A stretch of 64,000 nt of DNA, taken from Eledone cirrhosa (Eukaryota). The notes beneath the pieces were generated by a model. It did no database searches, was not told where the DNA came from, and saw only the letters and a list, made by a program, of their open reading frames with translations. The position numbers and the translations under genes are program-made. Location of the stretch: positions 392,026,001 through 392,090,000 of the forward strand of contig OZ024740.1 in NCBI GenBank assembly GCA_964016885.1. The letters are read 5' to 3'. Of this stretch, positions 48,458-52,013 are shown piece by piece (the first letter of the stretch is position 1; every line of letters begins with the position of its first letter).

Positions 48458-51150
48458 TAATATATATATATATATATATATATATAAATATATATATAAT
48501 ATATATATAATATATATATATAATATATATATATATATATATAATATATATATATATATATATATATATATATATATATAATATATATATATATATATAT
48601 ATAATATATATATATATATATAATATATATATATATATATATATATATAATATATATATATATATATATAATATATATATATATATATATATATAATATA
48701 TATATATATAAATAATATATATATATATATATATATATAATATATATATATATATAATATATATATATATATAATATATATATATATATATATATATATA
48801 TAATATATATATATATATATAATATATATATATATATATAATATATAATATATATATATATATATATATAATATATATATATATATATATATATATATAT
48901 ATATATAATATATATATATATATATATAATATATATATATATATATAATATATATATATATATAATATATATATATATATATATATAATATATATATATA
49001 TATAATATATATATATATATATATAATATATATATATATATATAATATATATATATATATATATATAATATATATATATATATATATATATAATATATAT
49101 ATATATATATAATATATATATATATATATAATAATATATATATATATATATAATATATATATATATATATATATAATATATATATATATATATAATATAT
49201 ATATATATATATAATATATATATATATATATATATAATATATATATATAATATATAATATATATATATAAATATATATATATATATATAATATATATATA
49301 TAATATATAATATATATATATATATAATATATATATATATATATATATAATATATATATATATATATATATAATATATATATATATAATATATATATATA
49401 TAATATATATATATAATATATAATATATATATATAATATAATATATATATATATAATATAATATATATATATATATAATATAATATATATATATAATATA
49501 TAATATATATATATATATAATATATATATATATATATATAATATATATATATATATATATAATATATATATATAATATATAATATATATATATATATAAT
49601 ATATATATATATATATATAATATATATATATATATATATAATATATATATATATAATATATATATATATATATATAATATATATATATATATATATATAT
49701 ATATATATATATATATAATATATATATATATATATATAATATATATATATAATATATATATATATATATAATATATATAATATATATATATAATATATAT
49801 ATATATATATAATATATATAATATATATATATATATAATATATATATATAATATATATATATATATATATAATATATATATATATATATATATATATAAT
49901 ATATATATATATATATATATATAATAATATATATATATATATATATATATATATATATATATATATATATATATATATATAATATATATATATATATATA
50001 TATATATATATATAATATATATATATATATAATATATATATATATATAATATATATATATATAATATATATATATATATATATATATATAATATATATAT
50101 ATATATATAATATATATATATATATAATATATATATATATATATATATATATATATATAATATATATATATATATAATATATATATATATATATATATAT
50201 ATATATATATATATATATAATATATATATATATAATATATATATATAATATATATATATATATATATATATATATATAATATATATATATATATAATATA
50301 TATATATAATATATATATATATATAATATATATATATAATATATATATATATATATATATATATATATATATATATATATATATATATATAATATATATA
50401 TATATATAATATATATATAATATATATATATATATATATATATATATATAATATATATATATATATAATATATATATATAATATATATATATATATATAT
50501 ATATAATATATAATATATATATATATATATATATATATAATATATATATATATATAATATATATATATATATAATATATATATATAATATATATATATAA
50601 TATATATATATATATATATATATATATATATATATAATATATATATATATATAATATATATATATAATATATATATATATATATATATATATATATATAT
50701 ATATATATATATATAATATATATATATATATAATATATATATATATATAATATATATATATATATAATATATATATATAATATATATATTATATATATAT
50801 ATATATTATATATATATATATATTATATATATATATATATTATATATATATATATATATATATATATATATATAATATATAATATATATATATATATAAT
50901 ATATATATATATATAATATATATATATATATAATATATATATATAATATATATATATAATATATATATATATATATATATATATATATATATATATATAT
51001 AATATATATATATAATATATATATATATATATATATATAATATATATATATATATATATATATATATATATATATATATATATATATATATATATATAAT
51101 ATATATATATATATATATATATATATAATATATATATATATATATATATA
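48458..51150. repeat. ~2.7-kb degenerate (TA)n tract
   Basis: Directly visible. Confidence 0.97.
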
Positions 51151-52013
51151 CAATATATTTAGAAACACACAGATAAATAATGACTATCTCCCCCTCCGCC
51201 TTTTGGGATTCTTTCTCACGTCGTGTAGACGCGTTCTTGAGACTAGTAAAATGAGGTATCCTCTTGATAAGTCGGCAGACCTCGCACGGACTCTATATCT
51301 TTATGATATATTGTTTTTGTTTATGCCACGAAACTACGTAGTCGAGGAATTTAGGAGCAGTTTAGGTATGATACATTTTATTACTAATTATATCTAAATG
51401 TTTCTTCTCTCTTCATAATGTATTTTTAACTCTGATACTGGTTCAGTCTAGTCCAACTGAATTGGTCTGTCCCAGTCATTCATTGAGCAACATCGGTGAA
51501 GTTGGCACCCTTAACTCACAGTTGGGTGCGGATGCATTCATGTATATATGTGTGTGTCCGCATGTATCTGTGTGTTTCTAAATATATTGTTAATAACTCC
51601 CTCTGGTCGAGCAATCTTTGAAGTGTGGGACAGCTGGAAAGCTTCCATTACTCATACTTCTCGCCTTCTTCACCACCTCTTCTACGGCCTCGATATAAAT
51701 ACCCCCTCCGCCTCCGTGGTATTTTCTTCGGGGTTATAAGAGGCTTAGCTCTGTTTCTCGACCGTTATATCGCGTGACTATCTCCCCCTCCGCCTTTTGG
51801 GATCTTTCTCACGTCGTGTAGACGCGTTCTTGAGACTAGTAAAATGAGGTATCCTCTTGATAAGTCGGCAGACCTCGCACGGACTCTATATCTTTATGAT
51901 ATATTGTTTTTGTTTATGCCACGAAACTACGTAGTCGAGAATTTAGGAGCAGTTTAGGTATGATACATTTTATTACTAATTATATCTAAATGTTTCTTCT
52001 CTCTTCATAATGT
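51150..52013 (+). mobile_element. Second locus of the 595-bp retrozyme-like unit: ~25-bp inverted piece plus about 1.4 units
   Basis: Homologous to 17979-20009 with scattered substitutions. HHRs at 51260-51347 and 51853-51939. Confidence 0.85.

Follow-up and report, generated by a model that had tools for sequence, protein, structure and literature searches.

Inverted insertions of a 595-bp hammerhead-bearing repeat in Eledone cirrhosa join two fixed 3' ends

Penelope-like elements (PLEs) with a C-terminal GIY-YIG endonuclease leave partial tandems and an inverted, 5'-truncated, head-to-head copy, have a bias for (TA)n and no discernible target duplication, and carry a tail of 30-40 bp that is often one-sided or optional (PMC8557442, PMC3846280; these and the other texts below are cited for their accessible portions). 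The tail is explained there by nuclease resolution or by self-priming, and the origin of the inverted copies and of the one-sided tail is named an open problem in PMC8557442. In 2024 the protein of one PLE, PAc (Anolis Poseidon), was reported to cut and extend both strands of an AT-rich target in vitro and was predicted to form a dimer; its two internal reverse transcriptase (RT) start sites lie downstream of the hammerhead, bound the tail, are adjacent to each other and are not homologous to the target, and the accessible text draws no link between these two sites and the two arms of inverted copies (PMC11167929).

Metazoan non-LTR retrozymes are low-GC, non-coding tandem units of 150-450 bp with one type I hammerhead each, dispersed in thousands of copies (PMC7229834; bioRxiv 10.64898/2026.07.22.740005), and have been argued to be non-autonomous PLEs that are moved by PLE enzymes (bioRxiv 10.64898/2026.07.22.740005). 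Fixed paired ends were not found in the accessible text of these papers, in which the word 'inverted' occurs 0 times (PMC7229834) and once, in a reference (bioRxiv 10.64898/2026.07.22.740005). In the twin priming of L1, both nicked strands prime cDNA, at the poly(A) tail and at an internal site, and the result is a 3'-ends-out inversion with an internal deletion and a short-overlap or end-joined inner junction (PMC2837659). For PLEs, a one-sided tail on inverted copies and, in vitro, a pair of RT start sites were already known; in the literature searched we found neither strict pairing of two ends nor a template common to both arms, a tail of 165 nt or twin priming by PLEs, and Arkhipova 2006, Evgen'ev and Arkhipova 2005 and supplements, which lay outside that search, may describe the pairing.

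In this paper we describe two insertions, at 18 kb and 51 kb, in a stretch of 64,000 nucleotides of Eledone cirrhosa DNA (contig OZ024740.1, positions 392,026,001 to 392,090,000; hereafter the window), and a census of related copies. Both loci are insertions of one 595-bp tandem unit, of which their 2033 bp and 864 bp are entirely made up, and (TA)n adjoins each on both sides (Table 1). Unit position 1 is the base that follows the predicted hammerhead cut.

Table 1. Features of the two insertions, in window positions.
Feature	Position	Strand	Unit positions or basis
18-kb insertion, long arm, 1860 bp, 3.1 near-identical 595-bp units, 3 hammerheads; outer 3' end at site B	17978-19837	-	unit 251 down to 177
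18-kb insertion, 7-nt templated insert TGATAAG, creating a 9-nt duplication of the ribozyme core	19838-19844	.	junction alignment
18-kb insertion, short arm, 1 hammerhead; outer 3' end at site A	19845-20010	+	unit 510 to 80
51-kb insertion, left-hand flank: (TA)n-type tract, seen in part, start at or before 50000	50000..51149	.	sequence
51-kb insertion, short inverted arm, 26 bp exact; outer 3' end at site B	51150..51175	-	unit 247 to 222
51-kb insertion, 5-nt filler AATAA where the strand switches	51176..51180	.	junction alignment
51-kb insertion, long arm of 1.4 units; outer 3' end at site A	51181..52015	+	unit 433 to 80
51-kb insertion, type I hammerhead, first copy, predicted cut after 51343	51259..51348	+	sequence and constrained fold; Rfam: none
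51-kb insertion, hammerhead copy 2, 1-nt deletion in 3' strand of stem I	51852..51941	+	sequence and fold
51-kb insertion, internal copy of the A-to-B interval (~165-nt 'tail'), conserved hairpins between A and B	51404..51590	+	
51-kb insertion, right-hand flank: (TA)n tract	52014..52160	.	sequence

An earlier note on this DNA had claimed that the two insertions share their termini and switch strand at different points, after about 1860 bp and about 25 bp, and that the outer ends are 3' ends of the hammerhead strand at TA-like words. The measured arms agree with this, and both outer ends abut (TA)n. The left ends, which had been taken to be the same, are not so to the base: the 18-kb copy begins 4 nt further out, and end B is therefore described as a cluster (unit 241-252) and end A as sharp (79-80). 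The 9-nt duplication that had been placed just before the 18-kb hammerhead is real, but the ribozyme core itself begins with it; the last CT of the minus arm together with the 7-nt insert forms the 9-mer CTTGATAAG at 19836, and its second copy stands at 19850. The 18-kb and 51-kb copies differ at 9/595 positions and have different junctions, so neither looks copied from the other.

Each unit contains the parts of a hammerhead, namely stem I (TCCTC/GAGGA), the core TTGATAA (U3-A8), a long stem II, GAAA, the palindromic CTACGTAG and TC at the cut. The palindromic helix III, the core and the stems are present in every unit, and the commonest form was counted 315 times among the fetched, overlapping loci; the U3-A8 core variant and a palindromic helix III are known from PLE hammerheads (PMC4209133). 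The hammerhead was identified by hand reading, an Rfam scan of the region returned 0 hits, and the constrained fold (-19.9 kcal/mol) lies 1.1 kcal/mol above the minimum (-21.0 kcal/mol). Like the metazoan retrozymes, the element appears non-coding and is low in GC, tandem and dispersed in high copy, with three unit motifs giving 7874, 5363 and 5471 exact matches in the 3.0-Gb genome, but its unit of 595 bp is longer than the units given for them. Judged by sequence, it fits a non-LTR retrozyme with predicted self-cleavage.

The census sample was taken from places on contig 1 that match at least one of three motifs, of which two lie close to the respective ends and the third is interior. The first 100 matches per motif were used, reaching 51, 65 and 63 Mb and falling into 77 stretches; one (L144) gave no parse, and one in which the same insertion stands twice (L107) was counted once. 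The yield was 78 insertions, 34 inverted and 44, the majority, with a single arm. Among 112 arm 3' ends, 106 lie at two sites, A (unit 79-80; 56 ends) and B (unit 241-252; 50 ends), with 6 elsewhere. Restricting the count to arms that contain the interior motif removes the bias from end-adjacent motifs, and 68 of these 71 arms have their end at one of the two sites (binomial p about 4e-92 if ends were uniform). Loci taken as best hits agree with the end rule but form a biased set. In the doubled case (L107:2973-6830) the two copies of the inverted insertion are 2554 bp apart, which may be a local duplication or an assembly duplication.

The ends of inverted insertions are paired. Site A is joined to site B in 31 of the 34, no A-A or B-B pair occurs, and the other three (L102, L123, L158) have another end; A+B is thus seen in 31/31 classifiable copies, for which p=5e-10 under independent, equally likely ends. 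The 3' ends point outward in all 34. TA-abutting ends of the two kinds are about equally frequent on the forward strand (A 1272, B 1112), the reverse-strand count being inflated by multiple matches per site. A reading by eye of the A ends next to TA on contig 1, limited to the first 100, showed no A-A pair, and the nearest minus/plus pair was 24.7 kb apart; 19 of these 100 ends read ...CATAATATATA and not ...CATAATGTATA, as is expected if the TA primer anneals over a mismatch or begins 3 nt earlier. A search of the single-arm copies for a hidden short second arm gave no signal. TA stands beside their 3' end in 41/44 and beside their 5' end in 38/44, an insertion bias of the PLE kind.

The right comparison for these insertions is with PLEs and not with L1. 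The retrozyme shares with GIY-YIG PLEs the partial tandems, the head-to-head inverted copy, the one-sided tail, the (TA)n bias and the lack of a discernible target duplication, both of its flanks being (TA)n; the PLE pattern of a 5'-truncated inverted copy that carries its tail on one side is found in 31/34. It differs in having no apparent ORF, such as one with the RT and GIY-YIG of an autonomous PLE, and in a tail of about 165 nt that is one-sided in 31/31. It is likely a non-autonomous PLE. The nicked strands that prime cDNA, the outward 3' ends and the inner junctions of L1 twin priming have their observed or proposed counterparts here, but a poly(A)-primed 3' arm, a variable internal site and a separation of the arms are all missing: each site is internal and has a fixed position, and the arms, which may be several units long, overlap. 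The frame of the earlier note, which set the insertions against the variable priming of L1, was incomplete, since an inverted truncated copy with a one-sided tail is a PLE signature.

An autonomous PLE is present in the same genome. An open reading frame remnant at window 20340-20810 (+), which we take by its DKG and LDVVSLYT motifs to be that of a PLE reverse transcriptase, lies about 330 bp from the 18-kb insertion and has 50-53% identity to young PLE families. It led to a young autonomous family (L193, L198, L201-L206) with a 3451-bp unit and many intact ORFs of 887 aa, in which RVT_1 is followed by a C-terminal GIY-YIG domain scoring 21.5 bits, slightly below the Pfam cut-off of 22.6; its pLTR motif has 2293 matches. 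By eye, the pLTR contains only a degenerate hammerhead-like motif. Copies end in (TA)n at unit 608-613 (site 1) or about 650-655 (site 2), ~42 nt apart, and 21 of 23 inverted copies, taken in order along contig 1 with the sequences read by eye, join site 1 to site 2. Fourteen of them were scored by script, 6 ends labelled 'other' were taken by eye for variants of site 2, and the arm table served to score L239 and L248/L249. Some inverted copies have the whole ORF on both arms (L193). The two like-ended exceptions are L241, a three-copy cluster, and L226, where about 157 bp of the flanks are also mirrored, at 95.5%.

The unlike-end rule is thus not peculiar to the retrozyme, and the two elements that follow it are unrelated. 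In a blastn comparison of the retrozyme with 20 PLE loci, simple repeats were the sole matches; a weak likeness to B was seen for PLE site 1 (targeted tests gave P 0.004-0.01, a test against the whole unit 0.10), and PLE site 2 matches neither A nor B. The 887-aa PLE is therefore at best a candidate mobiliser of the retrozyme. A partner carrying a short-stem hammerhead was also sought; of the 13 matches, the 7 inspected are retrozyme copies. Older retrozyme subfamilies (73-83% identity; L213, L219, L220, L221) have arm coordinates consistent with A+B, and the same two ends were noted in L213, L214 and L219-L222, which makes the A/B rule an old one; the core of L219 is CTGATAA.

We think it fairly probable that a PLE protein cuts both (TA)n strands and that the ends so freed prime cDNA on one RNA, each at its own fixed site. 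With each cut strand beginning its copy of that RNA from a separate site, as is likely, the A+B pairing, the inverted shape and the one-sided tail would be explained. The RNA would be cut by its hammerhead and form a circle, or be kept as a multimer, and the PLE protein, likely as a dimer, would bind it in trans with one active site at A and the other at B. Both RTs would run toward the 5' end, and either could cross several units; the one primed at B would pass the stretch copied from A by strand displacement or would copy the next unit. The two cDNA 3' ends would be end-joined, with 0-3 nt of overlap or with inserted bases, and then filled in, and one cDNA captured alone would give a single-arm copy ending at A or B. 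The A-B interval would then be the PLE 'tail', about 165 nt long in the retrozyme and about 42 nt in the intact PLE. Against priming at two sites stand the 3 inverted retrozyme copies with another end, the 2/23 like-ended PLE copies and the single-arm majority.

The two arms of one insertion come from closely similar templates. Arms overlap over at least 60 positions at 27 of the 34 loci, the remaining 7 being without overlap, and the median difference between the arms of one locus is 0.2%, against 2.5% to other loci; tandem units inside one arm are 0.17% apart. With the pairing in 31/31 and one template variant common to both arms, the census is stronger than what the earlier note had claimed from two loci. 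Gene conversion between the arms could be another source of their likeness. The B arm is longer than 180 nt, and so runs past site A, in 25/31, and both cDNAs therefore cover the same template positions, unlike in L1 twin priming. Such overlap would need no strand displacement if an asymmetric protein complex held two transcripts of one source locus, one engaged at A and the other at B. Two RNAs would also account for PLE copies with the whole ORF on both arms, and dual priming has been put forward for L1 (PMC2837659), but we consider this unlikely, because the complex would need a built-in asymmetry (like-ended copies 0/31) as well as a single source among thousands of copies, when 27/27 arm pairs are closer than the between-locus median.

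The inner junctions are less regular than the ends. Along either arm the switch points lie scattered (Rayleigh p 0.10 and 0.14), so that the fixed termini and scattered switch points expected across genomic copies were both found, and the arm lengths of inverted copies are uncorrelated (rho 0.16, p 0.38). The junction set comprised 32 A+B copies (30 positional plus L170 and L171, with L135 omitted), of which 4 were dropped for poor anchors. In the 28 left, 17 junctions have 0-3 nt of overlap and 11 have inserted bases, some of which may stem from subfamily differences relative to the reference unit; mean overlap is 1.24 against 0.65 expected (p=0.016). The 59-nt insert at the L142 junction consists of repeats of a 10-nt word with which the right arm begins, and it resembles a templated insertion by slippage. 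The idea that the cDNAs join wherever they meet is only roughly right: the arms usually overlap on the template and the joins themselves show short overlaps or inserts. Twin priming at two fixed RNA sites, which the earlier note had put forward, agrees with the fixed ends, the scatter and the shared template, and we infer the priming itself from genomic copies.

The same junctions bear on cleavage, in which a DNA intermediate, tandem or inverted, would be resolved at A and B by the endonuclease ahead of its insertion and the ends would not be priming sites. The tail is attributed to endonuclease-mediated resolution in PMC8557442, and A and B are AT-rich, as the target is. Cleavage alone, however, gives neither the outward 3' ends of all 34 inverted copies nor scattered, repair-like inner junctions, and the tail ends coincide with RT start sites in PMC11167929; we regard it as improbable.

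Fold-back of a single cDNA, which would prime itself and copy back to the other site, has been proposed for PLE head-to-head inversions and was inferred from palindromic junctions in PMC3846280. The copied arm would carry the same alleles, and the palindromes that this predicts are present, in perfect form, at 3/31 junctions, which is above chance (p=0.006). The other 28/31 are not palindromic, and in 16/31 (17/32 before removal of the L107 duplicate) the arm lengths make it impossible that one arm was copied from the other. Self-priming is therefore refuted as a general route; it could persist for a minority, and as the explanation of these insertions it is very improbable. An assembly artefact, or a DNA-level inversion between long TA tracts, is hardly credible even though both window loci lie in long TA tracts, the L107 insertion is doubled and the L226 flanks are mirrored, since a DNA-level mirror yields like ends, yet ends are unlike in 31/31 retrozyme and 21/23 PLE copies, and since junctions are locus-specific with inserted bases and the rule is common to two unrelated elements and to older subfamilies.

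If priming at two sites on one RNA is the route for the retrozyme, it may serve PLEs more widely. Tentatively, and with a little less than even confidence, we propose two-site twin priming as the normal route of endonuclease-bearing PLEs, with a dimeric RT and two sites, one per cut strand, on one possibly circular RNA. Were this so, two-site priming alone would yield pseudo-LTR tandems, head-to-head inversions and the one-sided tail. The strict rule in two unrelated elements, with one template variant per locus, turns the PLE question into one that can be put to single molecules in the in vitro system already at hand. The junctions also give evidence at their own level for PLE machinery inserting animal retrozymes, for which the earlier arguments were co-distribution and pLTR similarity. 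The element itself is of an ordinary kind, and the value lies in a countable rule that makes PLE integration testable.

Sites A and B, 165 nt apart, may act as the two strands of one modelled RNA helix, a mimic of the TA target. In local folds the A and B words are paired over 11 bp (region z=-4.5; probability 0.7-1.0 in 9/13 scored variants), and the hairpins between A and B are conserved, with two-sided change in 5/50 pairs. The helix does not appear in the RNAalifold consensus (18 variants) and has a probability of 0.0 in the whole-unit fold, linear or circular, in which forcing it costs 7.3 kcal/mol; as both words are also TA-like, we treat it as a lead and not as evidence. Best TA-likeness was rejected as the selector of the sites, as A fails to score 7/9 and unit 204-210 scores equal to B.

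Some minor features of the window were also recorded. Near-perfect palindromes of about 180-270 bp lie at 52280-52465 and 22200-22470, one of them beside a gap of 200 N (52466-52665), and are possibly assembly-related. The segment 16400-16970 (-) resembles by eye a LINE reverse transcriptase remnant. The unit, as represented by window 19240-20010, is partly present in 20 public runs from 16 studies and 17 organisms, with at least half its words in 12 of the runs, and matches at 90-100% in three of them (X1, X4, X10), which may reflect close relatives or horizontal spread.
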